Of a DNA stretch of 64,000 nt, positions 29,045 to 60,006 are shown piece after piece. Origin of the DNA: an uncultured Clostridia bacterium (GTDB taxonomy: Bacteria > Bacillota > Clostridia > Christensenellales > CAG-917); contig CAKQUV010000001.1 of NCBI GenBank assembly GCA_934277615.1, positions 121,035 to 185,034 on the forward strand, written 5' to 3'. The notes under the pieces were generated by a model. The model was not told where the DNA came from. It ran no database searches and was given only the letters and a program-made list of their open reading frames with translations. Both the position numbers and the translations under genes were made by a program. How positions within the stretch are numbered: position 1 is the stretch's first letter; each line of letters starts with the position of its first letter.

Positions 29045-29061
29045 AGAATTTATGTTTTATG

Positions 29062-29468
29062 GGTGCACCTATTAACGGAATATGCCTCTTCGGAGACGGA
29101 ACTCGAGCCGCAGGGCGGCGAGCTAGTCGAGCGCCAAGCTTGACGAAAAGTACAAGCGACTGCGCCGTGTTGTTGCGTAGCTGGCGCACAAAGCGCAGTG
29201 GCATAATGAGGGAAATGTCCCTATCTATGCGCGTGCCGTAAGGAGCGAAGCGACGGAATAGCGATTGGTACGAAGTCAATCGCGTCGCGTGTCCCCCTGC
29301 GGAGCAGTTCCGTGGGTTCCCTCAAACGAAGTGCAGAGGGGGAATGGAATATGGGCGCGACGCGTTAAACGACACATTCGGCGAATGTGTCGTAGCCAAA
29401 GCGAACGAGGCGGATTGCGGTGCGCAAACGCCGAAGTCCAAACACCGTGAGGAAGGGGGAAATTGCAT
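29062..29468 (+). ncRNA. Candidate structured RNA/repeat family, copy C
   Basis: It is closest to copy A in its conserved blocks. It lies between the convergent 3' ends of gdhA and guaB. Confidence 0.5.
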
Positions 29469-29492
29469 TTAAAATATTTACAGCAACTTCGC

Positions 29493-41948: not shown

Positions 41949-43178
41949 ATGAAACTCACAAAACTCAAAGACAACAAGGCGCAGAGTGCGCAATATATGC
42001 ACGGGTTTATATCCCACGTGATAAAATCCTTCGGGAAGCGCGACTGCGGTAGCAAAGGCGAAGTAGACGCGGTAAAATATATGGCGCAAGAAGTCGCGCC
42101 CTATGCAACCGACGTAAAAACTGAGCCGTACGACGTGCACACTCTTGCATTTATGGGCTGGATTTACATCACCGTAACGCTCATTCTCGGCGCTTTCGTA
42201 AGCGCGTTCTTTATGCCGATGCTCTCAATTATCCTCATTTGCGTAGGCATGGCGCTTATGGTTCTGGAATTCGTATTCTACCGTCAAGTGGTAGATTTTC
42301 TCTTCCCCAAACGCCAATCTCTCAACATGACCGCAATCAAAAAGCCGCAAGGCGAAGTCAAACGTCGCGTGCTCATATCGGGACACGCGGACGCGGCATA
42401 CGAGTGGACTCTCAACTATTATTTGGGCGGGAAAGCGTTTATCGCGCACTTCCTCATCTCCATTATCGGTATTCTGTACTTTATGGCAGTCGCAATCGCG
42501 GCGTGCGTAAAGGGCGCAATTTTCACGCCTATCACCGACCGGGCAATATTTATCGCGCTTTGCTGCAGCGGCGTATTCGTGCCGTTCTGGATACTTATGT
42601 ACTTCCTCTTCAATCCTCGCGTGATTGCAGACGGCGCAACGGACAACCTAACGGGTTGCGCAATGGGCATAAGTTTCCTCAAAGCGCTCAGCGACAACGG
42701 CATAGAGTTTGAAAACACCGAAGTCGGCTGCATTTGCGCAGGCGGCGAAGAGGCAGGTTTGCGCGGCTCCAAAGCATGGGTGAAAGCGCACAAAAACGAC
42801 TTCAAAGACTGCCCCACCACAATACTTTGCATCGATACTATTCGCGAGGACGACCATATTTTGGTCAACTACAAGGATATGAACGGCTTTATCAAATGCG
42901 ACCCCGAAGCAACCGAGCTTTGGCTGGATGCGTGCAAGGAAGAAGGTATCCCCTGCAAAAAAGGCAGCGTGGCTCTCGGCGCAACGGACGCGGCGGCTTA
43001 TACGCAAGGCGGCTTCAACAGCGTTTGCGTAACCGCAATGAACTTCAATCTTCCCAGATACTACCACACTCGCCTCGACGTCGCAGAGGACGTAAACGAG
43101 GATTGCCTTGCCAAAACTTTCAGCGTGCTTTGCTCCTTCGTTGAGAAAATCGACGACCTCGCTCAAAAAGAAAACTGA
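41949..43178 (+). CDS. Membrane-embedded M28-family metallopeptidase (paralog of 8652..9974)
   Basis: Motifs are SGHADAAYEW, TDNLTGCAMG, GGEEAGLRGS and YHTRLD, with the same inserted TM bundle. Confidence 0.75.
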   Translation: MKLTKLKDNKAQSAQYMHGFISHVIKSFGKRDCGSKGEVDAVKYMAQEVAPYATDVKTEPYDVHTLAFMGWIYITVTLILGAFVSAFFMPMLSIILICVGMALMVLEFVFYRQVVDFLFPKRQSLNMTAIKKPQGEVKRRVLISGHADAAYEWTLNYYLGGKAFIAHFLISIIGILYFMAVAIAACVKGAIFTPITDRAIFIALCCSGVFVPFWILMYFLFNPRVIADGATDNLTGCAMGISFLKALSDNGIEFENTEVGCICAGGEEAGLRGSKAWVKAHKNDFKDCPTTILCIDTIREDDHILVNYKDMNGFIKCDPEATELWLDACKEEGIPCKKGSVALGATDAAAYTQGGFNSVCVTAMNFNLPRYYHTRLDVAEDVNEDCLAKTFSVLCSFVEKIDDLAQKEN

Positions 43179-43405: not shown

Positions 43406-43434
43406 TTGTCAAAACCGTTTTTTTGAGTTACAAT
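43406..43434 (+). promoter_or_regulatory. Sigma-A-type promoter upstream of the tRNA-Pro repeat array
   Basis: TTGTCA, a 17-nt spacer, then TACAAT. Confidence 0.5.
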
Positions 43435-43487
43435 ACCTATGCTGTTTGAGAGAAATGCGCAAAATGCGGCAATCTCAAAGGCAGTAA

Positions 43488-43904
43488 AAAACAATTTAAT
43501 GATTCTAATCGGGGTATAGCGCAGTTTGGTTTGCGATAAGCAACGACCGCAAACAAAGTTGTTCCGTATCCGACATCGTCACCTGTCGCGTTGTGTCGAA
43601 AACGCAAGACCTGACGGAAATGCGCGAGCGCGCTCCCAAACATAAGGACACGCCGTCGAATAAAGGCAGTAATGATACAAACTTAATAATTCTAATCGGG
43701 GTATAGCGCAGTTTGGTTTGCGATAAGCAACGACCGCAAACAAAGTTGTTCCGTATCCGACATCGTCACCTGTCGCGTTGTGTCGAAAACGCAAGACCTG
43801 ACGGAAATGCGCGAGCGCGCTCCCAAACATAAGGACACGCCGTCGAATAAAGGCAGTAATGATACAAACTTAATAATTCTAATCGGGGTATAGCGCAGTT
43901 TGGT
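43488..43904 (+). repeat. Tandem 187-bp duplication carrying the first 21 nt of tRNA-Pro
   Basis: Units 43510-43696 and 43697-43883 are identical by eye. Each begins cggggtatagcgcagtttggt, as does the real tRNA at 43884. A partial diverged copy lies upstream. Confidence 0.9.
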
Positions 43905-43960
43905 AGCGCGCTTGACTGGGGGTCAAGAGGCCATGGGTTCAAGTCCCGTTACTCCGACCA
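43884..43960 (+). tRNA. tRNA-Pro (anticodon GGG)
   Basis: Hand-folded cloverleaf: acceptor cggggta/tactccg, D arm gcgc-agtttggta-gcgc, anticodon arm cttga-CUGGGGG-tcaag, T arm atggg-ttcaagt-cccgt. CCA is encoded. Length is 77 nt. Confidence 0.9.
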
Positions 43961-43969
43961 CAAACTTCG

Positions 43970-44002
43970 CTGAGTGCATACATTGTGTGCACTCAGTTTT
44001 TT
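43970..44002 (+). terminator. Intrinsic terminator after tRNA-Pro
   Basis: Stem ctgagtgca/tgcactcag, then tttttt. Confidence 0.8.
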
Positions 44003-44221
44003 ATATCCGTTCAACTTGCGCTTGCGCAAACGTTGAAACGGATATAAAAACAAGCACGCCTTGCGTGCCGAAGTTTGTGTAGTGGAACGAGCCATTAGGC
44101 GAAGTACCACAAAACTATCGTAGCAGAGTACCTCTGCCAAGTTTCTTGAATTGGAACGAACGAAGTGAGTACCACAAAACTTCATCGTTTCTTATCGAAT
44201 CTATCAAATGACGTTCAAAAA

Positions 44222-44250
44222 TTGATTTTTTGCAATCGTTGTGTTATTAT
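44222..44250 (+). promoter_or_regulatory. Possible sigma-A promoter for tRNA-Arg
   Basis: TTGATT, a 17-nt spacer, then TATTAT, ending 12 nt before the tRNA 5' end. Confidence 0.45.
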
Positions 44251-44262
44251 AAAAGCACTCAA

Positions 44263-44339
44263 GTTTCCGTAGCTCAGCAGGATAGAGCGTTCGCCTCCTA
44301 AGCGAAAGGCCGTGGGTTCGACTCCCGCCGGGAACACCA
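44263..44339 (+). tRNA. tRNA-Arg (anticodon CCU)
   Basis: Hand-folded cloverleaf: acceptor gtttccg/cgggaac, D arm gctc-agcaggata-gagc, anticodon arm ttcgc-CUCCUAA-gcgaa, T arm gtggg-ttcgact-cccgc. CCA is encoded. Length is 77 nt. Confidence 0.9.
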
Positions 44340-44726
44340 ATCACACCCCCACAGGGGTGTGTTTGTTTTTCTTGCGGTAGTTGTGCGCCTTGCGCACGTG
44401 CTTCGCACTCGACCCCACTTCCGTGGCTGACGCTTCGCTATTCCGTCATTCCATTCCTTACGACTCCCGCCGGGAACACCAATCACACCCCCACAGGGGT
44501 GTGTTTGTTTTTCTTGCGGTAGTTGTGCGCCTTGCGCACGTGCTTCGCACTCGACCCCACTTCCGTGGCTGACGCTTCGCTATTCCGTCATTCCATTCCT
44601 TACGACTCCCGCCGGGAACACCAATCACACCCCCACAGGGGTGTGTTTGTTTTTCTTGCGGTAGTTGTGTGCTTTGCGCACATGCTTTACACCCGCCCCC
44701 TCTTCCGTGGCTGACGCTTCGCTATT
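44319..44726 (+). repeat. Tandem 142-bp repeats, each starting with the last 21 nt of tRNA-Arg plus its terminator
   Basis: cgactcccgccgggaacacca occurs at 44319, 44461 and 44603. Each is followed by the hairpin cacaccccc-aca-ggggtgtg plus a T-run. Units 1 and 2 are identical. Unit 3 is diverged and is cut off at ~44726 by the stop codon of the first island gene. Confidence 0.9.
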
Positions 44727-47172
44727 CAACCTCATCCAACATTTTTGTAAGCTCTTCTATACAGTTGTCATACTCGTTATTGTCTGGATCAATTCTTTTT
44801 AACCAACTATACATTAATATGCCTTTTTCAATAGGAATACGATGTCTGTCAACGTAAGACAAAATGCGCCAAGCTTCGGCTACATCTTTTATGTCGTCGA
44901 TCATTTCCAACGTTATGTGTGCTTTTCCGTCTTCGGTTGGTGCCATTGTGGCGTTTAAACATTTCTCAATGATGGGAATCATTACGTTTATTGCTCTCAA
45001 ATAATGCTCTCGAATATCGTATAATTCCTCTTCTGTCATTTCGAGATCGTTTGAGTTTTTAGATTCAGCTCTGTCCATCTGTTTTTCTAACAGTGTGGAC
45101 GCAATCGCCATATTCCCCTTGTATATACTTCTTCTACATTCGGGGAAATCGGCTTTAGACAGAACCTTGTTTAGTAAATCGATAGATTCTTTATAACACG
45201 ATAGTTCTTCCTCGATTTTTCCTTGTGCATGATTTAATTTTGCTATGTGACTATAACAATTCGCTTTATCGCTATAATCTTCCACAGCATCAGACTGTTT
45301 CAATACTTGCTCAATGTAGCCAATCGCCTCGGAAAACCATGCTTTGGCATCTTCAAACTCATTTAGCTTTGTGCACTCAATCCCTGCTCTGAAGCAAACA
45401 ACAAAAGCCACTCTATAATACGGCAGTTTTTGCTTGTCTATTAAAAAACGCTTAATCAACTCCATTGCCTTGTCATAGTAATCTAAGCTTGCTTCGCCAT
45501 TATAATCTGCGATGGCGCCGAGATTACTATACATTATTGCCATTACATATGCATTATCTTCTTTATTTCGCACAGACTCTCCGTGCGAATGATTTTGTAT
45601 TGAGAAAGCCGATTCTATATAGTCTTTAGCATATTCGAGATCTCCTGCCTTTAAAAACAGCGTCCCCAGATTATTATAAACTTCTGCCAAATAATCCCCT
45701 GCCGACTCAATATGATTTGAATAGCAGCGTTCCATTAAATCTTTTGCTTTTCTATAAGATTTTGCGGCAGCGGACATCTCGTTTTCAGTACTATAGCAAA
45801 ATGCCAATTTGTTATAACACAGGTTATAATAATAAAGAGTTTTTCCATTCAATTTACTTTCATCTATTAACGATAAAAGTTTTATCGCCTCTTCAAGTTT
45901 TTCTATCGCTTGATTCAATCTATAAATCTCTATCAACAAACTTGCACAATTGCAAATAGATCCGACATAATCCAAATACTCATCTTGATTATCCGGTGAG
46001 GCTTTATCTTTTTTTATTTCTATAATCGTGTTTTGGTATGCAATTGCTTTATCGTAATCAATAGAGACGCCATGCCCCCTATGATAAATGTCAACAAGCT
46101 TTTCTATTGCAGGTAAATAATTATATTCCGAACACTTTGTTAATATCGTTATCCCTTTTTCCGTATTAACCTCTACGTCTATACCGAATAAATACGCCAA
46201 TCCAATAAGGTATTTATGTTCAGGTAAAAAGTCGTTGTTTTTTACATTTAAATAAGACAAGGCGTCTATCAGTGAACTGTCGAAAACAGGTTTGTCGTGA
46301 ACGTTTACCAATTCGGGAATATCATCAAACGCATCAAACACCGATTGTTTATTCGTTTCCACCAACTCTACCGGGAATATGTATTTACCTCTCGCTTTTG
46401 CAATAGGATACTCTGTGGTAATAATATAATTGAGTTCATTGACTACGTTTGGAGTGATCACCACGGAAAAAACATCGCATTTGTCGATCTCCTGCTCTAT
46501 TTCATAATTAAAGTTTTCTCCGGGCGTTAAAAATTCGTCATACCAAACCCCGACATCTTCAAGTTTATCGTTTTCATGCATCAACTTTATGAATTCATTG
46601 GCGTATTTTCTGTCTTTTTTTCTATAACTAACAAACACATGCGCATCGAATTCTGATTTTATTTGTTCGATTGTTTCATCTTCCAATAAAACAGATTTTA
46701 AAAATCTTTCCAGCTTCTTGGAAAATGGAATTGAAGTATTGTCCAAGTCAAATCTGGACATGAATTGGACATTGCCAAAAATCTTATTATATGATTCTAA
46801 AATATCTGTCTCTTGTAAAATCGGTAAAATCGGGATACGTTTTTCTCTTATAAATACAAATTCTTTAGAATTTATCAAATTGCTATCACTTAAAAATCTA
46901 TTTGTAATCGGAATCACAATTAGTTGCATTTGTCCCAACGTCAATTCCAAATCATCCTCTATATATTCGCTCGAATCCGGCTTATACCAAATAGAACAAT
47001 TTGCAACATCCAGAATATCCCTGCATATTTCGTCAAAAAACAATTTATAGTCTTCAGAGTGAGCGAAAAAATAAACCCTAGCCTTCCCCGTTGGCAAACT
47101 ATCCCCTCGAGTTTTGCATAATAATTGCATAATACTTAGCCCCTTTATCGTTAAATTAGCATAACGATTCAA
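44722..47172 (-). CDS. Tandem TIR-like domains fused to Sel1/TPR repeats (816 aa)
   Basis: The first TIR-like module is RVYFFAHSEDY...CSIWYKPD...LIVIPIT. The second is canonical: HVFVSYRKKDRKYANEF...VGVWYDEFLTPGENF...DVFSVVITPNVVNE. Sel1-like repeats follow (IYHRGHGVSIDYDKAIAY), then a long TPR-like region. The gene is AT-rich. An alternative start is at 47130. Confidence 0.75.
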   Translation of the reverse strand: MNRYANLTIKGLSIMQLLCKTRGDSLPTGKARVYFFAHSEDYKLFFDEICRDILDVANCSIWYKPDSSEYIEDDLELTLGQMQLIVIPITNRFLSDSNLINSKEFVFIREKRIPILPILQETDILESYNKIFGNVQFMSRFDLDNTSIPFSKKLERFLKSVLLEDETIEQIKSEFDAHVFVSYRKKDRKYANEFIKLMHENDKLEDVGVWYDEFLTPGENFNYEIEQEIDKCDVFSVVITPNVVNELNYIITTEYPIAKARGKYIFPVELVETNKQSVFDAFDDIPELVNVHDKPVFDSSLIDALSYLNVKNNDFLPEHKYLIGLAYLFGIDVEVNTEKGITILTKCSEYNYLPAIEKLVDIYHRGHGVSIDYDKAIAYQNTIIEIKKDKASPDNQDEYLDYVGSICNCASLLIEIYRLNQAIEKLEEAIKLLSLIDESKLNGKTLYYYNLCYNKLAFCYSTENEMSAAAKSYRKAKDLMERCYSNHIESAGDYLAEVYNNLGTLFLKAGDLEYAKDYIESAFSIQNHSHGESVRNKEDNAYVMAIMYSNLGAIADYNGEASLDYYDKAMELIKRFLIDKQKLPYYRVAFVVCFRAGIECTKLNEFEDAKAWFSEAIGYIEQVLKQSDAVEDYSDKANCYSHIAKLNHAQGKIEEELSCYKESIDLLNKVLSKADFPECRRSIYKGNMAIASTLLEKQMDRAESKNSNDLEMTEEELYDIREHYLRAINVMIPIIEKCLNATMAPTEDGKAHITLEMIDDIKDVAEAWRILSYVDRHRIPIEKGILMYSWLKRIDPDNNEYDNCIEELTKMLDEVE

Positions 47173-47173
47173 T

Positions 47174-48262
47174 TTACTTCCCTCGTATTGCTATAGATAC
47201 AAACACCGCAAGTTCGCCGTCTTTGCCTATCGCTTGACTATGCTGTGCGTCAATCTGCTCTTTTATCGGCAAATCCCAGTCAAGCGTAACAAGCTCGTCC
47301 CCGAACACAAGCCGGAACAAACTCCCCTTTTTATCCAATGTCGCAATGTCCCCGTTAAAACTGCAAAGCGAATTGTCATTCCCAAATTTTTTGACAATGC
47401 CTCTTTTGTTGTAATGCGCAAATACTCTTAGCAATACCGCAAGCGGCGTATCCGACAAATCCGCCTTCACCATAACGGTGGTATGTACTTTGTTCAGCCA
47501 CAACGGTATCTCTTTCGGGCGTTCCTCTTTTCCCACGAGTTTTTTCCTCAAATCGTCGATTTGCGACATAATTGCGCTCACTTCGGTATCTTCTGCCAAA
47601 GGCGTTTCATCCGCGGATTCTTCACTTTGCGGTTCTTCCTCTTGCGACACTCTCGCATTGGCAATGATTTTGGAAAGTTCCTCCTCTTCCTTCTCTTCCT
47701 CGGCTTTTCTCGCCGCTGCGGCCCTTTCCTGCCGTTCACCTTCCGCGTCCATCTTCCGCTTCATTTCGGCTTTGTCCTTTTTGAACATGTTTACCATTTT
47801 GATGTAATCATCTTCGCCTATTGTGCCACGATACATATCTCCGTCCTGCACGACAAGCCCTCTCGCTTGCAAATACGCAAGCGTGGCGTCCACGTCGATT
47901 GCGGCGTCTTTTGACGCGGCGCGAAGCTCATCGACGGTCTTTCCTTCGAGATCTTCCAGCATTCTAATGACGTTAAATGCCTGCATATCTATCTCATACA
48001 TAATCTCTTTAAGCTCGCTGTTGGAGAACTCCTTTTTCCAATCTCCGTTCTCTTTGCGCACCTGCTCGATTTTCTCATTATCTTCCGTAACGGCAAACTC
48101 ACCGTCCCCGCTTTCCTCGATAATGCCTTTCCCCAGCAAATATCGCATAACGTCAAAAGCCTCTTCATAAGAGCAACTTCCGATAGCCGCCACGCTTTCG
48201 AGATTGACGGATTTTGTTTTCATCATTTTTCTGAGAGATCTTATCAACAGTCTATCGTCCAT
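47174..48262 (-). CDS. Hypothetical protein: two winged-helix-like modules, acidic coiled coil, beta-rich C-terminus
   Basis: The ORF stops 1 nt before the next gene. AFDVMRYLLGKGIIEE and ATLAYLQARGLVVQDG look like wHTH recognition regions. There is an EEKEEEE linker. No enzymatic motif was seen. Confidence 0.55.
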   Translation of the reverse strand: MDDRLLIRSLRKMMKTKSVNLESVAAIGSCSYEEAFDVMRYLLGKGIIEESGDGEFAVTEDNEKIEQVRKENGDWKKEFSNSELKEIMYEIDMQAFNVIRMLEDLEGKTVDELRAASKDAAIDVDATLAYLQARGLVVQDGDMYRGTIGEDDYIKMVNMFKKDKAEMKRKMDAEGERQERAAAARKAEEEKEEEELSKIIANARVSQEEEPQSEESADETPLAEDTEVSAIMSQIDDLRKKLVGKEERPKEIPLWLNKVHTTVMVKADLSDTPLAVLLRVFAHYNKRGIVKKFGNDNSLCSFNGDIATLDKKGSLFRLVFGDELVTLDWDLPIKEQIDAQHSQAIGKDGELAVFVSIAIRGK

Positions 48263-48283
48263 TTTACACCTTTCGCTTAGATA

Positions 48284-50866
48284 TTATTTCTTCCAGAATA
48301 CGCGCGCGACGTTTACGATATCATAATCGTTGTACGTTTCGTCAAGCATAGAAAACGGCACCAGACAATCATGTTCGTTTCTGGCTTTTCCCGCTTTTTT
48401 TGGCGCTTTACGACGCTCTTCAAAATCATCTTCGCTTTCGCCCTCTTGTCTTGAAGGCATTTTTTGATTGAACGTCCAGCCACCGGCAATATACGACCTA
48501 TTCCACCTCTCGTGCTCGAGCTCTGCCAGCAACCGCACCTCGTCGTAAGTATAAGCGCTCGTACAATAGCACTCCCTCATCGCCGCCATAACTTTCATAA
48601 ACAAGGACGCGGACTTGTTCGATTCTCTTTCTGCGAGAGTAACCTCTTTCCATTCCGTTCTCAAACACTCTTTGTCCTCGTTTTGCACAGCCGTATTGAA
48701 ATCGCGCAACAAAGTGTAATACCCACCGTTTTTATCCGGGGTTTCTCTGTTGGGAAAATACTGTTTCATTTCCGGAACTTGATTTTCGAGCTGTTCTCTT
48801 CTGAGGAGCACGTATGCGTGATTGTACTTCATCTGCTCGTCCTCGTCGATGATTTGATTGTACGAGTAAATCTCATCCCTGTTTCCGAAAACGATCACTT
48901 TCAAATTGCCGTATCGTTTGGCGTCGTCATCGCTCCAGTTGATTCTGTCGCGGTTTTTCTTATTGAGGATATTGATTGCAATCGTTTGCAACTTTGCAGG
49001 TCTTGCCGCATTGCGCAGATTGTTGAGTTCGTGTTTGATATCCGCAAGCAAGGCGTTTGCCATCTTGATATTATCCTCGTCTTTCCCGAGGGCAACTATT
49101 ATAAGGTTATATTCCTGCGAGCGCGAATCTGCGCCCGTTCTCGAATCCAGATAATCCAGATAATCCGAGCTGAAACACGACGCATTGTGCATAACCACCA
49201 CAGGCAACTTCATTTGATTTTCGATGTCCTCGAGCGTCGCCGCGCGATCTTTTTTGAAATCCGAGGAAAGATTCATCGTTTTGCCGACTAAGCTATGATA
49301 CGTCGTATCGATTTTCTCTCTACGTTTGTTCCTGATTTGTTCTTCAATCTCGTTTTGACTAAGAACGCCCTTGTCGTCGACGCACACGATCAACGGATGT
49401 TGCAATTCAAAAATACCGCTCACAGAACCTGCGTCTTTATCGAATATGTCGGCTCTGAATTGCGTCGGCATGTGGTAATCGGGCTGTTTGTTGTCTATTT
49501 TAGTCGACATAACATAGGATTGCAACATAGTCCTTTGGCCCGTCGCGCCAAAGCCGACAACCATGACTTTGTACGTCGATTCGCCCGTATCCTGAATCAA
49601 CGAATTCGCGTCCCACTCATTGTTTCTTGCCTCCGCAAACAGTTTTGCGGTTATGTCGGACTCGTTGACAATATGCAAGGAAAACTCATTCTCATTGACG
49701 ACGCCGCGAGGATTGCGCACTTCGATTGCTCCGTTTTCAAGCACGGACGCCTTCTCGCGATTTTTACGGTGAATTCGCGGATTTGCGGATTCTAAGCCGC
49801 TATCTACGCACTTTTTCTTGTAATTGTCGTAATACGTGTAGTTTATATCTCTGTTTGTAAGTATGTAGTAATCGACAAAAACAGGTTTCTTGTTGCATTC
49901 CACGATTTCTCGCGCGACGTTCTCGATTTCGTTAAATACGATTTCCGTATTCACGGTTTCTTCGCCGCTGAAATCCTCGTCGTTATGCATTGCAAAAATA
50001 TGGATTCTGCTGCTTTTTGCCTTGGCTTTGACAACGATTTTTTTGCCTTTTCGTTTATCTTTTTCCTCATCGTTTTGCGGCGGTTTTGTTTCAAAAAACA
50101 CGTTGTCTACATATAGTCCGAGCCTCTTGAGCATGGAAGATTCCTTATCGCCGGTTTTCTTTGAGTAAGACCAGAATATATATCCGTTGGACATAATCTC
50201 TCTGTGCAGCGGATTTTTACGGTCGAAAGACCCGATATCGTCGCCTGCAAAAATCACTTTACTTCTTCTAGGTTTTTCGGGTTTTTGAGCGTCTTTACCT
50301 GCGCCTTTGTCCTCTCGATATGCCTTTAGTGCCTTTTTGTAATTTTCCTTATCTTTGAACCTCTTTTCGTTGATGCTGTTTGCCAAAAGCAACGAATCCT
50401 GCGTTACGGACGTAAACAAATATATATCGGTATTCGTATCCGTTTTCAACCTCAAACGCAGGAAGAACAGCAACACGCCGCTGTACATCTCATAGCTGAT
50501 TCTTGTAAGGATGATACTGAAGAACACAAGCCCCGCAAGCGCCGAACTTCCAGAATACAGCCATTGCACCAGCACTCCGCCCACTTCTCCGGGGGATGAC
50601 AAGCCCTCGAATTCGAGTCCGCCGATGCTCGAATAAATGGAATAAAAGACCGTTGCAAGTCCGTCATCGAACGCGTCCGGTCTGCCCGCCGCAAAAACGG
50701 CAAATTTAACGCCAAAACTAAACGCAAACACAATAGCTATAAAAAACAACTCAACCGCAAACTTTGCGCCGGAAAATCTTTTCCTTGCCGCAATGTATGC
50801 AAACATAATCAAACCATACGCCGTCAATAAAGCTACTGCCCCTATAACTGCTCCGAGTGCCGCCAT
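48284..50866 (-). CDS. TM + Rossmann-like + C-terminal RyR-domain protein (860 aa)
   Basis: About 4 N-terminal hydrophobic helices. The glycine-rich motif is VMVVGFGATGQ. The C-terminus is LAELEHERWNRSYIAGGWTF...EHDCLVPFSMLDETYNDYDI, which fits the bacterial RyR-domain pattern EH-x-RW...GW...H-x-x-LVP(F/Y). It is a full-length paralog of 53320..55803. Confidence 0.65.
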   Translation of the reverse strand: MAALGAVIGAVALLTAYGLIMFAYIAARKRFSGAKFAVELFFIAIVFAFSFGVKFAVFAAGRPDAFDDGLATVFYSIYSSIGGLEFEGLSSPGEVGGVLVQWLYSGSSALAGLVFFSIILTRISYEMYSGVLLFFLRLRLKTDTNTDIYLFTSVTQDSLLLANSINEKRFKDKENYKKALKAYREDKGAGKDAQKPEKPRRSKVIFAGDDIGSFDRKNPLHREIMSNGYIFWSYSKKTGDKESSMLKRLGLYVDNVFFETKPPQNDEEKDKRKGKKIVVKAKAKSSRIHIFAMHNDEDFSGEETVNTEIVFNEIENVAREIVECNKKPVFVDYYILTNRDINYTYYDNYKKKCVDSGLESANPRIHRKNREKASVLENGAIEVRNPRGVVNENEFSLHIVNESDITAKLFAEARNNEWDANSLIQDTGESTYKVMVVGFGATGQRTMLQSYVMSTKIDNKQPDYHMPTQFRADIFDKDAGSVSGIFELQHPLIVCVDDKGVLSQNEIEEQIRNKRREKIDTTYHSLVGKTMNLSSDFKKDRAATLEDIENQMKLPVVVMHNASCFSSDYLDYLDSRTGADSRSQEYNLIIVALGKDEDNIKMANALLADIKHELNNLRNAARPAKLQTIAINILNKKNRDRINWSDDDAKRYGNLKVIVFGNRDEIYSYNQIIDEDEQMKYNHAYVLLRREQLENQVPEMKQYFPNRETPDKNGGYYTLLRDFNTAVQNEDKECLRTEWKEVTLAERESNKSASLFMKVMAAMRECYCTSAYTYDEVRLLAELEHERWNRSYIAGGWTFNQKMPSRQEGESEDDFEERRKAPKKAGKARNEHDCLVPFSMLDETYNDYDIVNVARVFWKK

Positions 50867-50942
50867 AATTTATCCCCTTTTCTTTTGTTTTTCAAAATAG
50901 TGATTTATTACATCTAAACGCGTCTTTTTGCAAAAACGCGGA

Positions 50943-51467
50943 TCATTCCAATATCTTGTCGATAAGCCCGTACCCCAATGCTTCTTTTGCGCTCATCCAC
51001 TTATCTCTTTCGCAATCCGCATGCAGCGTCTCGAGCGATTTGTCCATGTTATCCGCCATAATGGTTTCCAATTCGTTTCTGGATTTCGCCATATCTTCCG
51101 CAATACGTTGCATTGCGGTTTGAGGACGTGGCACTCCTTGCCTAAGCTGCATAAGCGGCTGATGAATAAGCATTCTGCTATGCGGCAAGGCATATCTTTT
51201 GCCCTTCTCTCCGCACGAAAGCAAGAATGCGCCCATGGACGCAGCCATGCCGTAGCATACGGTGGAAACGGGTGCTTTGATGAGCTTTATCGTATCGTAG
51301 ATTGCCAATCCGTAAACTATGCTGCCGCCGTTTGAATTGATATACAAACTTATCTCTTTGTTTTCGTCCTGTCTGTTGAGCTCGAGCAACTGCAAAATGA
51401 CTTTCATTGCGGAATCTTCATCCACCGTTCCGTTCAATAGCACTATACGAGGGTTATTGTTTTTCAT
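50943..51467 (-). CDS. ClpP-family serine protease, N-terminally truncated, catalytic triad intact
   Basis: It aligns by eye to E. coli ClpP from ~residue 30 onward, using my recalled E. coli sequence: YINSNGGS, GMAASMGAFLL (Ser), MLIHQP (His), CERDKWMSAKEALGYGLID (Asp). It lacks the axial-loop segment that contains DIYSRLL. Confidence 0.85.
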   Translation of the reverse strand: MKNNNPRIVLLNGTVDEDSAMKVILQLLELNRQDENKEISLYINSNGGSIVYGLAIYDTIKLIKAPVSTVCYGMAASMGAFLLSCGEKGKRYALPHSRMLIHQPLMQLRQGVPRPQTAMQRIAEDMAKSRNELETIMADNMDKSLETLHADCERDKWMSAKEALGYGLIDKILE

Positions 51468-51482
51468 ATCGTTCTCCTCCTT

Positions 51483-52031
51483 TCACTCGAGTATCTCGTC
51501 GACAATTCCGTATTCCAAAGCCTGTTGTGCGCTTAGGCTCACCCCGACTTCGCAATCTCGGTGTATTTTGTCAAAATCCGTATTCGTCTTTTGAGCAAGC
51601 ATATTCTCAAAAATCTCTCTTTCAAGCTTGACTTCTTTTGCCTCGATTGCAATCTCCGTCTCCTGATTGGCGCCGGATTGCAACATCCCGTACGGCTGCT
51701 CGAAAGAAATCTGACTATGTCTGAGCGCATATCTTTTTCCCTTGGCGCAACACGCAAGCAACAGCGCGCTATACCCGTCCGCCATGCCGACGCACGTCCC
51801 GGATATTGGCGCTTTTATGGTGTTCATCGTATCGATAATCGCCATCATATCCAAGTAACTTCCGCCGCTCGAGCCGATAAACAACTGAATATCTTCCTTC
51901 TCGCTTTTGGCATTGTAATCCATCATCTGAAAAATAATGCTCGCCGCCTTGTCCGAATTGACATATCCGCTCACGACGATAATACGGCTCTCCTCCAGCT
52001 CCTCACCAAGCGACCTAGCCTCTTTTGCCAT
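51483..52031 (-). CDS. ClpP-fold pseudoprotease (all three catalytic residues replaced)
   Basis: RBS aggagg plus M46 of the tracked ORF. In the same hand alignment to recalled E. coli ClpP, GMADGYSALLL puts Gly at the Ser position, ISFEQP puts Glu at the His position, and DCEVGVSLSA puts Gly at the Asp position. The stop lies 15 nt upstream of the active paralog. Confidence 0.75.
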   Translation of the reverse strand: MAKEARSLGEELEESRIIVVSGYVNSDKAASIIFQMMDYNAKSEKEDIQLFIGSSGGSYLDMMAIIDTMNTIKAPISGTCVGMADGYSALLLACCAKGKRYALRHSQISFEQPYGMLQSGANQETEIAIEAKEVKLEREIFENMLAQKTNTDFDKIHRDCEVGVSLSAQQALEYGIVDEILE

Positions 52032-52102
52032 AATCCTTCCTCCTGTTCCATGTGTATGATATTGAACTATATTCATCCTTAAGTTGCGACATTTTATTTG
52101 CA

Positions 52103-53278
52103 TCAATTGTATACATATGGAAGAATTTCTTTTAGACTCTTCAATCTGCGGATAAAATGATGCCAAATTTTATCATTATAAAAATCTGTATTTTTAGGGT
52201 TGATACAAAGAGTTTCAACCATTGTTGTATAAATGAACTCATCATTAAACGAATTCCCTACATATAAAATGTCTTTTGGTGAAACATGTGTCGACTGAAT
52301 AATTTTGTTTACAAATCGCGCTTTCCCCTCAAAGTCATATGGCGTACCTATAATGCCATTTAACATTCCCTGATCATCAAAAGTAAATCGATTCGCTTTA
52401 ATCTCTGTAAAACAATCTACAAGTTCTTTCCCCAATACGCATTCCACATATTGTTTAATTGATCCAGATACATTGTATAATTTTATTCCCTTGGATTTTA
52501 ATTCCATTATCACTTCTCTGGCATCATCAACGAGTTGTGCTCTTTGAGCCACTTCTTTTATATGATGTTTGTTGCACCCCACTTTTATGAACATTTTTTC
52601 TGTTATTTCACACCATTCATCATGAGAAATTTCATTATTGCTGAATTGCTTGTGATATTTTTCGCATTCACTAACATCATAACCCAAGATAGTCCACATC
52701 AGTTCCCATGTATTAGAATCTACACGCGGTTTAGTAAGTGTTCCATCGAAATCAAATACCACTATCTTTTTATTAACATGTTGAGAAACCAATTCGCTAA
52801 ATATAAGTTCTATAACTTGGCTTTTATATTGAAACACATACGGAACCGGTGGCGAGCCAATAATTCTTTTCATTGCATCTTCTCCCCAAAGAGCAGATAC
52901 TATATCTTGGTTAACCATACCATTTGTTTCGTTTTCCCATGCAAAATCTGGAAAAATCACGGGAATAAACTTTACATTTTTATTTTTTAACACCTCATCC
53001 ATCTCAATCCTTGTAACCGAATTGAGATTTGGTGTGCCATTGACAATAAACCCCTCAAAAAAATTTTTTGTTAATAGCATAATGAAATTTTCTACATTAC
53101 CCAAATATTTTTGAGGATCTAGTAAAAAATTCCTCATTTCGCTCGCATAAATTTTTTCTGGAGAATAGTAAGTTGCACCTACTTCTTCACTTTTTTGACT
53201 CATCGCAACATAGATCTCATTTGCGATTTGAATTCCTGCAGATGAGCCTCCCCGATAGCAAATAAAATTTCTATACAT
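52103..53278 (-). CDS. TIR domain fused to HAD-superfamily (PSP-like) phosphatase
   Basis: N-terminus is MYRNFICYRGGSSAG...FIMLLTKNFFEG...RIEMDEVL (TIR-like). C-terminal HAD motifs are VVFDFDGTLTK (I), VSGS (II), K-x (III) and VGNSFNDE (IV). The gene is AT-rich. Confidence 0.75.
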   Translation of the reverse strand: MYRNFICYRGGSSAGIQIANEIYVAMSQKSEEVGATYYSPEKIYASEMRNFLLDPQKYLGNVENFIMLLTKNFFEGFIVNGTPNLNSVTRIEMDEVLKNKNVKFIPVIFPDFAWENETNGMVNQDIVSALWGEDAMKRIIGSPPVPYVFQYKSQVIELIFSELVSQHVNKKIVVFDFDGTLTKPRVDSNTWELMWTILGYDVSECEKYHKQFSNNEISHDEWCEITEKMFIKVGCNKHHIKEVAQRAQLVDDAREVIMELKSKGIKLYNVSGSIKQYVECVLGKELVDCFTEIKANRFTFDDQGMLNGIIGTPYDFEGKARFVNKIIQSTHVSPKDILYVGNSFNDEFIYTTMVETLCINPKNTDFYNDKIWHHFIRRLKSLKEILPYVYN

Positions 53279-53319
53279 TATCGTTTCCTCTTTGCCAATG
53301 GCGCACATGCTCTGTGCGC

Positions 53320-55803
53320 TTAAGCCTTTCTTTTGTGCGTTTTCTTCTTCTTGCCTGCGCTTTCGCCTTTATTCTCGGCGTTTTTAGCCTCTGCGTTTTG
53401 ATTTTCGGCGTTTTGGCTTTCTGCGCCTTTTTTCTCTGCTTCTATTTCCTTTTCGCTCTTCCTTTTCACGATCATGTACCCGTTTTGATTGAGTAACCAC
53501 ACCAAATCGTCCATAATCTGATAATCGTATTTGATAACGTCAGTCTTTTCTTCGCTGCAGTTATCTTTCTTAGCCATAATCTTGCGGAATTCCACAAGCC
53601 CCTCGAACGTGGTAACGTTTCCGTGCCGTCTGAGCGCGAGATTTTTGGAATCGCCATTCTCGATTTGCTCGATAGTTGACGGAATAACGCCGTTGGATAT
53701 CATATAAGCGTTCCATCTTTGATGTTCGAGGATGGCCATAGCCTGTCTTTTACTGCCATTCACAAAGTCTATGGTATATTTGACAGGGAGTTTGCCTTTG
53801 ATACCGTCTCTTTCCTTGCCGTAGACAATGGGATCGCCCTCTTCGTATTTCTTTTCATACTCGGCGCAAGTGTCTTTTTCGTCATTGGTTCTCGGTATAT
53901 AGTCATAGCCCAAAAGATTGAGCTTTTCTCTTATGCACATACACACGTACACGTTGTTATCTCGCTGTATCTGCGATTGCGCATACCAACTCTTAAGAGC
54001 GTCTCTCTTCACGTCCTCTTCGTATTCATACTTGGTATCGCCGACAAAAAGCCGTCCGTCCGTGGGCTTTTCCGCCTCGGAAGAGTTGATTGCCGCAACC
54101 ATCGCCGCCGCCTTTTCCTTGTCCGCCTCATACCATTTCTTTATGTAATCCAAAAGCGTCATTTTCCCGTCTTTGACGGCTTGTCTGTCTTTTGCGATGT
54201 CCACTTTCTTGTACTTCGCGTCCTCGAGTTGATACGTCATGTGTTTATCTCTTGCCATCATCTCCTGATTTTCATCCACGATTTGAGAGAGATTGTACAC
54301 AAGGTTCCTCTCTATGCCGAAAGTGATAAATTCTTCTTTTAGTTTTGCTTCTTTGAATGTCGTTATGGTGTCTTTGATACCGTTAGACAACTTGTCGCTT
54401 CTTATCTTCACAAACACTTTGGTCTTATCGTACAAGCCCCATTCTTTGAGTTTTGCGACGATTTTTTCTACCATATCAAGGTTTGCCATATCCGAGCCGA
54501 ACGCGATTATCACGTAATTGAACGCACCCTCAACGTCAATATCTCTCTTTACCGATTCATAAAATCCTGCATCGTTCACGTCGAGTTTTTGACGGAAAAC
54601 AATGTTTGCGGGCTTTGGAGGCAACGGCAAGTATTTGCTCTTATCTGCCCTATCGAGCACCTCGTTTTCATACCTGAAATATGTGTGATTGAGGTTTTTA
54701 TCGTTCTCTGCGTCGCGCTTGTCGTAAACGTAATAGTTCACGTCTTTTTGCACGAGTTTTCCGTCTTTTTTCGTCAAGAATTGATTGTTGGCAACAGACG
54801 TAAGGAACACTTGTTGGCTTGTTTTGCCAAAGCCGATCATCACCACGTTCATGTTCACGTCCGATCTTATCGTGGCGCTATCGTAGTCTATCTGCTCTTC
54901 CGTCATATACCTTGTAAGCGGATAATTGCTCACAAAATCTCTGGCAATCAACTTGTACTTGTTGATGTAATGCACGCATCCCTTAGTAAGTTCCACATAT
55001 TGCAGATACGACGTCATGTTTTCGGGCTCGCCGAACACGTAGACGTTGACGCCTCTTTTTTCGTCTATTACGAAATCCGACAATTTCATCTCTTCTATGG
55101 TTTTGCTCACCTGCTGCACGTATATGAGATTCTGAGATTCGTCCTCGGTGTTGATTATCACGTTGATTTGCTTTTTGGTGAAGTCCTTAAAAGTCTTTAT
55201 CAGCGTTTTGTCAAGGTCGTCGCCCTTCTCAAATTTGATATGAGCAACCTTTTGCGCATAGCAGAAGTCCAGTATCTCATCCGTGCTTTCCGAAAGCAGC
55301 ACCACGTCCGTTTTTTCGTCTGCGGACTTGATTATGTCAACGTTATGCTCGTTGTATCCGACTACCACAAAAACCTTTTTGCTTCCCTTCGTCATCTTGA
55401 CCTTTTCGGCAAAGTTGAACATTTTTCTGTGGAATATCGTAACGGCAAATAAGATTGCGTTGAGCGTTACGAGAACAAAGCAGATGTCCATCACCGCGCG
55501 ATAGAACACGTTGTCCGCCATAAGTGCGGACACCATACTGTAGTTATAGCTCAAGACGACCAGCTCGATAGTCGCTTTTACAGAGCGCAACAGCGACTCC
55601 CAAATCGACGCGCCCGAATAGGCGATGCCCATCCAATACATGGGTATTGCCACTATATAAATCAAAGCAAACTGACCTTTTTTAAATCCCTTCAAAAACT
55701 TCAGTTTTTCTTCTCTGTTCAACAAGAACAGCCTTACGATGACGCCGACGACGATTGCCAGCATACATACAAGACACAGTGCTATAACAACGTTCATAAA
55801 CAC
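53320..55803 (-). CDS. TM + Rossmann-like + C-terminal RyR-domain protein (827 aa), paralog of 48284..50866
   Basis: N-terminal TMs. VVMIGFGKTSQQ corresponds to VMVVGFGATGQR. FNYVIIAFGSDMANLDM corresponds to YNLIIVALGKDEDNIKM. The C-terminus is AILEHQRWNAYMISNG...HGNVTTFEGL...YDYQIMDDL, followed by a lysine/glutamate-rich tail. Confidence 0.65.
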   Translation of the reverse strand: MFMNVVIALCLVCMLAIVVGVIVRLFLLNREEKLKFLKGFKKGQFALIYIVAIPMYWMGIAYSGASIWESLLRSVKATIELVVLSYNYSMVSALMADNVFYRAVMDICFVLVTLNAILFAVTIFHRKMFNFAEKVKMTKGSKKVFVVVGYNEHNVDIIKSADEKTDVVLLSESTDEILDFCYAQKVAHIKFEKGDDLDKTLIKTFKDFTKKQINVIINTEDESQNLIYVQQVSKTIEEMKLSDFVIDEKRGVNVYVFGEPENMTSYLQYVELTKGCVHYINKYKLIARDFVSNYPLTRYMTEEQIDYDSATIRSDVNMNVVMIGFGKTSQQVFLTSVANNQFLTKKDGKLVQKDVNYYVYDKRDAENDKNLNHTYFRYENEVLDRADKSKYLPLPPKPANIVFRQKLDVNDAGFYESVKRDIDVEGAFNYVIIAFGSDMANLDMVEKIVAKLKEWGLYDKTKVFVKIRSDKLSNGIKDTITTFKEAKLKEEFITFGIERNLVYNLSQIVDENQEMMARDKHMTYQLEDAKYKKVDIAKDRQAVKDGKMTLLDYIKKWYEADKEKAAAMVAAINSSEAEKPTDGRLFVGDTKYEYEEDVKRDALKSWYAQSQIQRDNNVYVCMCIREKLNLLGYDYIPRTNDEKDTCAEYEKKYEEGDPIVYGKERDGIKGKLPVKYTIDFVNGSKRQAMAILEHQRWNAYMISNGVIPSTIEQIENGDSKNLALRRHGNVTTFEGLVEFRKIMAKKDNCSEEKTDVIKYDYQIMDDLVWLLNQNGYMIVKRKSEKEIEAEKKGAESQNAENQNAEAKNAENKGESAGKKKKTHKRKA

Positions 55804-55878
55804 TCCTCGCTATACGGATATACTTAATAGTATTATAATATCATACTTAATGTAGTTTTCATAGTATAACTTTGCGAT

Positions 55879-58017
55879 TTACGCTCTTTTGACGCGTTTT
55901 TCATCGATTTCGATATCTCCCGAGCAATAATCGACGACTTCGCCCTTTTCGCCTTTATCGCCTTTACTGCCGCTCAAAGCAAAGAGTCCGCCGTCTCCTC
56001 CGGGACCTCCGTCGCCGCCGCTGCCTGCATAACCCTTTCTGAGCGTTATTTTCCCCGTGAAATCGTGAGCGCTCACTTTTTCGCAATCTATTGCGTATCC
56101 GGAATTGCCGCCTTTTCCTCCCGTTCCGCCTTTGCCGCCGCTTTGACCTATCGACCCGTTCGAGCCTTTTTCGCCCATACCGCCCGTTCCGCCGTTGCCG
56201 GCAGTGAGCGCAATACGCCCCTTGCCGGTAAATGTTACGTTCTTTCCGCTTATAGCCGCTTTGCCTGCCTCACCGTCTTTACCCGTCAGACCGGACTTTC
56301 CCGTTTCGCCCCATATATTATTTCGTCCGTACACTTTGATTTCGACGTTTTCCGAGCTCAAAACGAGTCCGCCGTGAGTTATATTCACGTCGCACAATAT
56401 AACCTTTTCCGCCGCCGTCTTAATCGTAAGCGAATACTGCTTATCGTAATCGGACTTTATCACCAACGTTTTGCAGTTCTCGCCCGTAACGATAGTCGTG
56501 CCGACGGAATCCGCAACGTTAGAAATATCCAACGCCACGATCTCCTCGTTCAGGTATTGTCTTGACTCCTCGAAAGAATATATGCGCACCGTTTCGTAAT
56601 TCAAAAGCGTTTCCGTTTTCGGCTTGCCCACGCCGCAGTATATTTCCATTCCTAAACAAGTCAGCATAATCACCATTGAAAGAGCGATTGTTCCTACCGT
56701 TTCGGCAACGTCGCCGCCTTTTCTCGATATTACGACAAAAATTATCGCGCATATCAACAACCCGGGTATAGCCAACGCCGGCGCTAACGCCATCGCTTCG
56801 CAGAACATCATTAAAAAGAGATATCCGCTTTTTTTATCGGAAATCCACGCCATTCCCGCCGTCGTCGCTATGGACGCAATAATACTTGCTCCCGTCGCAA
56901 CGCCCAAATAAATCTTTACACGGAAAGGATCGGCGTCTATCAAATAAGTGAATTCTGTAAAGCATAATATGTAATCGCTCTTCATGTATCCCAGCCACAT
57001 ACACGTAAGCCCCACCGCGCAAGAAAGGAAGGTCAGCAAAAGCGGCACTTTTTCTTCGTTGTACGTAACGCACAACAACGAGATAGCGGAAGTGGCAAAT
57101 ATTCCCACGTAACCGGCAATAGTAGGGCTTACCCCCAAAAATACAGTCGATGAGATAAAATAGAACGTGCTTATTTCAAGCTCTTTATCATCGGCGAGTT
57201 TCCAACATCTGATTATGACGTGAATCACGGAAACAAAACAACACGCGGACGAAACGTATAAAACGACCGGGGGAACCGCATCAAAAAACAAAGAGAGCGG
57301 TCTAATATATCCGTTTTTGAAATAAAAAATGTATTGATACAGTTGCCCTGCGATAAATGCGATTATCGGAACTATTACGGCAAAGACTTTGCAAACTATC
57401 TTATTGCGATACTCTTTAAGTCTTGCTCTCTCCTCTTCGCTCAACGTTTCGTCCGCTACGTCCGTCGTGATCGTCGTGGTCGGACGTGTCGGCGCTGTTG
57501 TACGTCTTGTCGTATCCGTCGTGCTTGTCGTCGTACTAGGACGTGTAGGAGTCGTCGGACGCGTCGGCGTAATCGGGCGCGTCGGAGCAGGTTCTTCCGA
57601 CGACGAAAATGCGTCCGTTTTGAACGCACTCTCATCAACGGTTTTTGCCGTAGGTTTTGCTTTCAACGCCCTGCAATTTCTAAACGCCTCGGGGCCGATA
57701 CTGTCAAGCGTACCCTCGCACACGACGTTTTCGAGATTGACGCAGTCTTTGAACGCTTGCATTAATATGCTCAGGACTTCGTCGTGCAAGACGACGGTTT
57801 TTATATTCTTGTTGCCCTCGAAAGCACGCTCTCCGATTACGTTGTATTCCGACGGCACGATGAGCGCGCCCGACACTATATCGAGCGCCAGAGCCTTCTC
57901 GCGCGTCAAAACAGACTTGCGGTTTTCCACCACAAATTTCTCCGTGCATCCGCACAGTTCGCAAGCGGTAAGCGAATCGTCGTTATCCGAATTACAATTT
58001 TTACAAACCCACGTCAT
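55879..58017 (-). CDS. Zinc-ribbon + BspA-type LRR + Pro/Thr linker + multi-TM + glycine-rich C-terminal domain protein (712 aa)
   Basis: The zinc ribbon is CKNCNSDNDDSLTACELCGC. The LRR_5-like region is IGERAFEGNKNIKTVVL...AFKDCVNLENV...EAFRNCRAL. The linker is PTRPITPTRPTTPTRP. About 9 hydrophobic helices follow. The C-terminus has G-rich runs (GGKGGTGGKGGNSG, GSGGDGGPGGDGG, GDKGEKGE). Confidence 0.65.
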   Translation of the reverse strand: MTWVCKNCNSDNDDSLTACELCGCTEKFVVENRKSVLTREKALALDIVSGALIVPSEYNVIGERAFEGNKNIKTVVLHDEVLSILMQAFKDCVNLENVVCEGTLDSIGPEAFRNCRALKAKPTAKTVDESAFKTDAFSSSEEPAPTRPITPTRPTTPTRPSTTTSTTDTTRRTTAPTRPTTTITTDVADETLSEEERARLKEYRNKIVCKVFAVIVPIIAFIAGQLYQYIFYFKNGYIRPLSLFFDAVPPVVLYVSSACCFVSVIHVIIRCWKLADDKELEISTFYFISSTVFLGVSPTIAGYVGIFATSAISLLCVTYNEEKVPLLLTFLSCAVGLTCMWLGYMKSDYILCFTEFTYLIDADPFRVKIYLGVATGASIIASIATTAGMAWISDKKSGYLFLMMFCEAMALAPALAIPGLLICAIIFVVISRKGGDVAETVGTIALSMVIMLTCLGMEIYCGVGKPKTETLLNYETVRIYSFEESRQYLNEEIVALDISNVADSVGTTIVTGENCKTLVIKSDYDKQYSLTIKTAAEKVILCDVNITHGGLVLSSENVEIKVYGRNNIWGETGKSGLTGKDGEAGKAAISGKNVTFTGKGRIALTAGNGGTGGMGEKGSNGSIGQSGGKGGTGGKGGNSGYAIDCEKVSAHDFTGKITLRKGYAGSGGDGGPGGDGGLFALSGSKGDKGEKGEVVDYCSGDIEIDEKRVKRA

Positions 58018-58037
58018 CTTCCCAAATCCACACTTTA

Positions 58038-58952: not shown

Positions 58953-58954
58953 TT

Positions 58955-60004: not shown

Positions 60005-60006
60005 TT

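Follow-up and report, generated by a model that had tools for sequence, protein, structure and literature searches.

Does a repeated tRNA end necessarily mark the border of the genomic island beside it? The question is raised by a 64,000-nt stretch of DNA (the window) from an uncultured Clostridia bacterium of the Christensenellales (contig CAKQUV010000001.1), in which the transfer RNA (tRNA) gene tRNA-Arg(CCU) (44263..44339, + strand) opens an array of three 142-bp units, each beginning with the last 21 nt of that gene, and in which a minus-strand gene cluster starts at the far end of the array. A sequence-only reading had interpreted the array as an attachment (att) site-like scar at the island edge. 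The array appears to be a miniature, tandemly expanded version of a known att-type scar structure, and that version is new. We regard it, with about even confidence, as the remnant of a decayed or miniature integrative element, similar to a cis-mobilizable element (CIME), that was expanded in tandem by unequal crossing-over.

The array itself is real. Tandem Repeats Finder reported 44319-44727 with a period of 142 bp, 2.9 copies and 97% matches, and this program and a repeat search agreed with the earlier description of three tandem units that carry the 3' 21 nt of tRNA-Arg and a hairpin. The 21-mer CGACTCCCGCCGGGAACACCA extends from the T-loop through the CCA of tRNA-Arg(CCU). By exact match it occurs three times in the window, at the positions given before (44319, 44461 and 44603), and no further copy was found anywhere in the window even when 5 mismatches were allowed. 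The first copy (44319-44339) is the 3' end of the gene itself. Each copy is followed by an 8-bp G+C-rich hairpin (CACACCCC-CACA-GGGGTGTG) and then by a T-run. A unit consists of the 21-nt tRNA end and 121 bp that comprise the terminator hairpin, 24 invariant nt and a 75-nt tail, and this 121-bp interval between 21-mers contains no open reading frame (ORF).

Unit 1 (44319..44460, + strand) shows all these parts in order, with the hairpin at 44342-44361. It is 100% identical to unit 2 (44461..44602, + strand), as had been claimed, and unit 2 may be missing or collapsed in other assemblies. Unit 3 (44603..44727, + strand) is truncated at 125 nt; its homology ends after ...GCTTCGCTATTC at 44727, again as described earlier. 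About 10 substitutions had been counted in unit 3. The divergence stands but the number does not: there are 8 substitutions, all at unit positions 68-99, and positions 1-67 are unchanged. Units 1 and 3 show 0/67 differences at positions 1-67 and 8/58 (14%) after them (Fisher p = 0.0016). The 24 nt on the 3' side of the terminator do not vary between unit 1, unit 3 and the related locus L017, and the tail is identical at 65/75 positions (87%) between the window and L017. Each unit provides a predicted terminator, the first of which would likely end the tRNA-Arg transcript. On the minus strand, the hairpin of unit 3 (44626-44645) is likewise scored as a terminator; it stands behind the first gene of the island and probably ends the convergent transcript of that gene.

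The history of the array can be read from related loci. The locus is flanked by a peptidase M28 gene (41949-43178), which is 97% identical to a gene of 'Christensenella sp. UBA7571' and is also present in Hadza and other gut metagenomes. Between this gene and the minus-strand low-GC cluster lie tRNA-Pro(GGG) (43884..43960, + strand, from tRNA prediction) and tRNA-Arg(CCU). We fetched 77 comparison loci via the flanking peptidase gene, exact-protein look-ups and one DNA scan; they are labelled here with L-numbers (L001, L017 and so on). At the empty site (L046-L049 and L077), the tRNA end ...GGGAACACCA is directly followed by another terminator (AAAAGCCGTTTTC...GAAAACGGCTTTTT) and a conserved flank. 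At the one-unit site (L017 and L076), tRNA-Arg is followed by a 143-bp unit collinear with that of the window and by a second 21-mer, CGACTCCCGTCGGGAACACCG, which carries two changes (19/21) and precedes the orthologue of the empty-site terminator and flank. BLAST aligned 12415-12533 of L017 to 8206-8323 of L046. L017 and L076 are two separate records with an identical unit sequence; they have no TIR island, and other genes come next. The window species has two or three Arg units and then the island. Among the fetched loci, the Arg unit was found only in the window species and in L017/L076, at this one site. L017 and L046 are 98% identical in the flanking peptidase gene, yet they differ in the presence of the Arg unit. 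Because the relatives show either a bare tRNA and terminator, or a unit, a second 21-mer and the same terminator, the ancestral form is one insert of ~121-122 bp between two 21-mers, in an attL-insert-attR layout. The att-type anatomy proposed earlier is thus borne out by a co-oriented downstream 3' tRNA fragment that runs from the T-loop to CCA, and by empty and occupied sites in relatives.

Other relatives carry different insertions in the same gene. In L038, L064/65 and L068, the native tRNA-Arg is interrupted right behind the anticodon loop by related sequences, and the inserts contain a complete foreign tRNA-Arg(CCU) with its own promoter. The interrupted regions are L038 11040-11330, L064 6000-6300, L068 6360-6613 and L001 12060-12215. 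In the interrupted relatives, the foreign tRNA-Arg(CCU) lies 170-200 nt downstream of the cut native gene; therefore, the inserted element replaces the tRNA and does not repair it. In L001, only the first 9 nt of the native gene precede the cut, and the foreign tRNA-Arg is followed by a 2.2-kb islet (12135-14436) without an integrase. The sole product of this islet is an AAA/DUF4143 ATPase, and the islet ends with a 45-nt copy of the foreign tRNA-Arg's own 3' half, from the anticodon loop on. The varied insertions in L001, L038, L064/65 and L068 show that tRNA-Arg(CCU) has served many times as a site of integration in the clade. Separately, the conspecific strain L056 (7437-13230) departs from the window just upstream of the tRNA-Pro promoter (from about window position 43388 onward). 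Beyond this point it carries an IS30-like ORF (HTH and weak rve), a rolling-circle Rep (REP_ORF2-G2P) and genes of unknown function, and no tRNAs were found within 6 kb.

The sequence-only reading had itself allowed for an assembly artefact, and short-read assembly could in principle have made or miscounted the repeats. Near-identical contigs do differ by exactly one unit: the near-identical Hadza contig L040 has two Arg 21-mers against three in the window, and L041 and L042 have two of the 21-mers of a second array at tRNA-Pro (described below) instead of three. Many contigs also end inside the arrays. The number of identical units is therefore not reliable in short-read assemblies. This doubt is confined to the identical copies. 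With 8 differences between units 1 and 3, no fewer than two units must be real, and L017 and L076 are two separate records with the duplicated 21-mer. Moreover, L041 and L060, which are one scaffold from another sample, end exactly at unit position 67, after which units 1 and 3 part; a true unit 1-unit 3 tandem would break the assembly graph just there. We consider it hardly credible that the repeats are artefacts in kind.

The relation of the array to the island is a different matter. The first island gene, which is not part of the repeat, encodes a TIR-TPR protein of 802 amino acids from its ATG (44722..47130, - strand). Array and island meet at 44722..44727 in CTATTC, a sequence that belongs to unit 3 and, read on the minus strand as GAA TAG, also forms the last codon and the stop codon of the TIR-TPR gene. 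The junction is thus a microhomology of 6 nt that lies within unit 3, 15 nt before the unit ends and far from any 21-mer. The closest homologues of the TIR-TPR protein (57-64% identity, 800-808 amino acids) terminate at the same residue, which indicates that the gene is complete and of full length; truncation of the gene at the junction was rejected on this ground. Since the junction is a microhomology within the unit and not at the 21-nt core, the island appears to have been joined by illegitimate recombination and not by site-specific integration. Since L017 and L076 carry the unit and the duplicated 21-mer without the TIR island, the repeat is also older than the adjacent island and unrelated to it. 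The claim that the scar marks the edge of this island thus did not hold. Relatives that have the repeat without the island had been named beforehand as evidence that would speak against it, and L017 and L076 are such relatives in substance, with a single unit and a second 21-mer. The locus is a caution that a duplicated tRNA end need not mark the boundary of a neighbouring island.

The cluster beyond the junction (44722-64000, - strand) resembles a conflict system and is partly low in GC (33-36% at 45-47 and 52-53 kb). It encodes the TIR-TPR protein, unknown proteins of 362 and 860 amino acids, two ClpP paralogues, a HAD protein and an 827-amino-acid protein, followed by a leucine-rich repeat protein of the BspA type, TerD, a transglutaminase, a Ser/Thr kinase, a 595-amino-acid protein and a VWA protein. 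Elsewhere, homologues of the TIR-TPR gene lie in the middle of clusters among similar TerD, transglutaminase and ClpP genes, and no link to a tRNA was seen for these homologues in other genomes. A domain scan of sixteen large ORFs between 39.4 and 64 kb detected no recombinase domain, in accordance with the earlier remark that no integrase is visible.

We propose the following origin for the array. First, the insert would have arisen by recombination in the T-loop of the tRNA-Arg gene, with incoming DNA that, like integrative elements, supplied a tRNA 3' end of its own together with a terminator. The element would then have been nearly all lost, or would only ever have been att-sized, leaving a gene-less, cis-mobilizable-like remnant. 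Second, the direct repeats would have permitted unequal crossing-over or slippage, which would have produced two diverged unit types (1 and 3) and, in recent times, one more identical unit; exact loss in some relatives may have followed the same route. Third, the TIR/TerD/ClpP island would have been added later by illegitimate recombination at the 6-nt microhomology in unit 3, and this joining would have removed the end of the array and the original flank. Crossing-over within the array is suggested because units 1 and 3 are identical up to position 67 and 14% different thereafter, and because units 1 and 2 are identical. This origin is supported by the contrast of empty and occupied sites in relatives, with the orthologous flank kept, and by the fragment being co-oriented, downstream and starting in the T-loop, which is the Islander configuration (PMC4383910). 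The proven use of this tRNA gene as an insertion hot spot in the clade also speaks for it, as do, for the later joining of the island, the junction at CTATTC and the full-length TIR-TPR gene. Decay to gene-less att-flanked elements and tandem accretion are both described processes (PMC5704250).

The same arrangement might be produced by an active miniature non-autonomous element, in which the unit would be a bare attP inserted repeatedly at the T-loop by a recombinase acting in trans, so that older copies are pushed downstream. Under this scenario, it is understandable that the older-looking unit 3 lies furthest from the tRNA while the identical units adjoin it, that presence and absence vary between relatives as close as L017 and L046 (98% in the flanking gene), and that the similarity of units between lineages exceeds that of neutral sites. 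However, the unit occupies one site only in all the fetched loci and was found in none of the viral and metagenome scans, no candidate recombinase is known, and unequal crossing-over is a simpler account of the same pattern. L017 and L046 have also diverged from each other in the flanking intergenic DNA, and homologous exchange can therefore explain the polymorphism between these two loci. We judge ongoing mobility of this kind to be very unlikely.

Several described systems resemble the remnant that we propose. The Islander criteria for tDNA islands place the end fragment on the correct side of the tRNA gene and in the same orientation, with an island length of 2-200 kb and rejection of candidates shorter than 2 kb; the recognized sublocations of the crossover are the anticodon loop, the T-loop and the T/acceptor junction (PMC4383910). 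Like these islands, the tRNA-Arg locus has an intact tRNA gene and fragments in the same orientation (the copies at 44461 and 44603 match 21/21 on the + strand), the 3' fragment lies downstream and runs to CCA, the identity starts at ttCGACT inside the T-loop, and an empty site in L046-L049 and L077 is matched by an occupied site in L017 and L076 with orthologous flank. Unlike them, it has no integrase or any other gene, its interval is 121 bp and its unit 142 bp, outside the range of 2-200 kb, and the copies stand head-to-tail with the whole interval repeated.

CIMEs are flanked by attL and attR and lack genes for integration or transfer (PMC5704250). The Arg insert likewise has the 21-nt repeat on both sides and no genes, and tandem structures at a tRNA 3' end are another common trait (for CIMEs and tandem accretion, Pavlovic 2004, cited in PMC5704250). 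Described CIMEs are kilobases long and derive from identifiable integrative and conjugative elements or integrative and mobilizable elements, whereas no parent element was found here in the fetched loci, viral contigs, phages or JGI metagenomes. For the tandem expansion of the Arg unit, unequal crossing-over would also be a simpler cause than integration time after time, and its repeats are putative att sites. CIMEs are the nearest described category, the Arg unit being far smaller than any that we found described. In Dehalococcoides, tandem ssrA islands leave repeated 20-bp copies of the ssrA 3' end downstream of the gene, with the insertion point in the T-loop (PMC3146451). The likeness lies in the several downstream direct repeats of a 3' end and in the existence of units without integration genes (PMC3146451). 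There, however, the repeats are spaced by gene-bearing islands, mostly with a serine recombinase module (PMC3146451), while the Arg repeats are spaced by 121 bp of non-coding DNA. Finally, ordinary minisatellite-like duplication would account for identical neighbours, a copy number that varies with assembly and exact loss, and a spacer module is also found in tandem in L006. Slippage alone nevertheless leaves unexplained a foreign 122-bp insert whose repeat is precisely a tRNA end from T-loop to CCA.

Another possible source of the units is tandem duplication of the whole tRNA-Arg gene followed by decay, in which case the tail of the unit would be the degenerate 5' two-thirds of the gene. MAFFT does set the tail segments TTCCGTGGCT, GCTTCGC and TTCCTTA against tRNA segments TTCCGTAGCT, GTTCGC and CTCCTAA in the same order. 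The similarity is not significant against shuffled sequences (local p = 0.12; global p = 0.34 for the window and 0.07 for L017), and derivation of the tail from a tRNA 5' part was rejected for this reason. Neither ARAGORN nor Rfam detected a pseudo-tRNA, and uniform decay cannot give a 21/21 3' end beside an unrecognisable 5' part. We therefore hold such decay to be highly improbable.

A second array, absent from the sequence-only reading, lies upstream of tRNA-Pro. Tandem Repeats Finder placed it at 43477..43904 (+ strand; 187-bp period, 2.3 copies). Its units 43510-43696 and 43697-43883 are identical. Each opens with the 21-mer CGGGGTATAGCGCAGTTTGGT, which is the start of tRNA-Pro as far as the D-loop, and closes with a copy of the leader found before the real tRNA-Pro. 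The copies of this 21-mer stand at 43510 and 43697, and the genuine tRNA start at 43884. The two arrays are mirror images: the first tRNA has repeats of its 5' stub on the upstream side, and the second has repeats of its 3' stub on the downstream side. As in Islander tDNA islands, the Pro 5' fragment lies upstream and begins at +1; unlike in these islands, its boundary falls in the D-loop. A sigma-70-like promoter of the tRNA-Pro transcript (TTGTCA-17-TACAAT; 43406..43434, + strand), located upstream of the 187-bp array, is conserved in all relatives.

The Pro unit is more conserved than its surroundings would suggest. At 4-fold sites of the flanking gene, the window is 50-54% identical to the other lineages. 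Across these lineages, identity is 93-100% at positions 1-44 of the Pro unit (the 21-mer and 23 nt), 96-100% at positions 90-137 and 62-80% in the block between them, and the upstream 21-mer matches at 21/21 in each of the six lineages. Because these blocks are near-invariant while 4-fold sites are ~52% identical, i.e. near saturation, the Pro unit is under purifying selection and is not a neutral scar. It is present in every examined lineage of the clade that keeps tRNA-Pro beside the peptidase gene, being absent only from the single contigs L038 and L067. Between L017 and L046, the variable block of the unit is 76% identical and the peptidase gene 98%. A small ORF in the Pro unit (28 codons from ATGCGCGAG) was set aside by inspection and not treated as coding, because the conservation is at the nucleotide level without a synonymous pattern. 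With an exact copy of the first 21 nt of a tRNA kept over long evolutionary distances, the Pro-leader array is the part of the locus likeliest to hide something new.

The spacer between the two tRNA genes (43961..44262, + strand) contains the tRNA-Pro terminator (43969-43997), modular hairpins and the tRNA-Arg promoter (44222-44250). It is built of repeated hairpin modules, of which the hairpin GCACGCCTTGCGTGC at 44054 has a stem-compensated twin, GTGCGCCTTGCGCAC, inside the Arg unit. A further spacer sequence, CGAAGTTTGTG, is complementary to the tRNA-Pro trailer CACAAACTTCG. In L006 (14260-14690, - strand), three copies of a spacer module, estimated by eye at ~117 bp, stand in tandem.

The mirror symmetry of the arrays suggests one explanation that needs no integrase. 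A foreign segment running from tRNA-Pro to tRNA-Arg may have been swapped in by two illegitimate joins within the resident tRNA genes (at nt 21 of tRNA-Pro and at nt 56 of tRNA-Arg). Stubs facing outward would remain on either side, a 5' one upstream and a 3' one downstream, and would later serve as direct repeats for tandem expansion. Identity that stops exactly at the tRNA ends would follow automatically, the arrays would mirror each other around one two-tRNA cassette with 21 nt each, and the D-loop boundary would require no known integrase site. Substitution by a foreign tRNA-Arg is indeed seen in L001, L038, L064 and L068, and the locus is mosaic between strains, as the contrast between the peptidase gene and the Pro variable block in L017 and L046 shows. 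On the other hand, two independent illegitimate joins at once are unlikely, and the boundary in the Arg T-loop is a classic integrase site. The two units also differ in distribution, the Pro unit being clade-wide and the Arg unit restricted to the window species and L017/L076. We think cassette replacement improbable.

The conservation of the units also raises the possibility that they are selected functional RNA or DNA modules, either leaders and trailers for tRNA processing, termination or regulation, or antisense or decoy RNAs of a tRNA end. The near-invariance of Pro blocks 1-44 and 90-137 against 50-54% at 4-fold sites, the perfect upstream Pro 21-mer in all six lineages and the 24 invariant nt past the Arg terminator in unit 1, unit 3 and L017 are in line with this idea. 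The Arg unit folds well (z = -4.4), its hairpin GTGCGCCTTGCGCAC has the stem-compensated spacer twin mentioned above, and its tail shares a motif with a structured RNA family. However, the terminator hairpin contributes much of the fold energy. The RNAalifold covariation term is -0.72, the changes being one-sided transitions that lend no covariation support. The folds suggested an 'anti-fragment' pairing with the 21-mer in each unit, but the duplex energies were not convincingly beyond controls (p = 0.03-0.08 for Arg and 0.4 for Pro). No Rfam match was obtained for the units or the tRNA-Pro array at gathering or relaxed thresholds. In addition, the Arg unit is dispensable, as L046 and L077 lack it, and the Pro unit is missing in L038 and L067. 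A selected function as the explanation of the units is, in our view, rather unlikely, but it has to be taken seriously, above all for the Pro unit.

The structured RNA family in question is a repeat of ~420 nt with copies in the window at 21540-22060 (- strand), 26960-27380 (+ strand) and 29060-29480 (+ strand), characterised by conserved blocks and compensated hairpins. It gave no Rfam match at gathering thresholds or relaxed E-values. The minus strand of the Arg unit matches the most conserved block of the family, CGTAAGG-N8-GACGGAATAGCGA. The family-like stretch spans the junction between the tail of a unit and the next 21-mer (44435..44470, + strand, and also 44577-44612); it covers 36 nt at 78% identity (TCGCTATTCCGTC-N8-TCCTTACG). 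The local alignment score to the family is 32, against 16.7 ± 2.6 for shuffles. In nhmmer, the window version has E = 0.003, and the L017 version, which is nearer to the family, has 2e-4. The earlier claim of a match to the core of this family is accordingly sound as to the similarity, which is statistically real, but its extent is short. Outside 34-40 nt, the rest of the Arg unit does not align. A match of this length does not place the Arg unit within the family. The insert may have captured part of an RNA gene of that kind. A resemblance of tRNA-Arg itself to the family was considered and was not significant. In L068, a shorter family member lies between tRNA-Pro and tRNA-Arg (~6020-6290, - strand) and lacks exactly the matching block. 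As side observations on the family, copy B lies upstream of a glutamate dehydrogenase gene, and copy A has an extra insertion of ~150 nt.

Several points weigh against the origin from an integrative-element remnant. No integrase was found between 44.7 and 64 kb. A full-length element with the halves of the unit at its ends was found neither in viral contigs nor in GenBank phages, Joint Genome Institute (JGI) metagenomes or the fetched loci. Exact-pattern scans of viral contigs for the Arg unit halves (together and each alone), the start of the Pro unit and the family motif were empty; blastn of GenBank phages returned tRNA matches only and no parent element; and a JGI metagenome scan with the Arg unit gave nothing. 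A second metagenome scan, with the invariant tRNA-Pro block as query, retrieved just two contigs, both of known types. A 142-bp circle would be very small for recombination. Between the window and L017, the Arg unit (65/75 in the tail, no change in the 24 nt) has also kept more identity than neutral sites of the flanking gene (54% at 4-fold sites), which argues against a dead scar, since such similarity is unexpected unless recombination exchanged the region. Lastly, the boundary of the tRNA-Pro array in the D-loop is no known integrase sublocation, and this array is clearly constrained; one mechanism may be unable to fit both arrays. The Arg and Pro units could together represent an undescribed class of small non-coding modules with an exact tRNA end, either mini-elements served by a trans-acting recombinase or selected leader and trailer RNAs; the two invariant blocks of the Pro unit, one of which includes the pseudo 5' end, are of most note here, but we consider such a class quite unlikely.

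If the units are the remnant of an integrative element, att-type scars can contract to ~120 bp, outlast speciation and give rise to tandem copies. Such structures are overlooked by island finders that filter on length and on an integrase, and short-read assemblers break on them or miscount them. The locus is a compact natural archive from uncultured gut Christensenellales, in which tRNA-Arg(CCU) has been the scene of repeated integration, of tRNA replacement, of decay and of illegitimate joining. Elsewhere in the window, Tandem Repeats Finder reported short tandem repeats at 24151-24186 (18 bp, two copies), where large ORFs of both strands overlap, and at 53371-53415 (15 bp, three copies), within the ORF at 53320-55803 (- strand).

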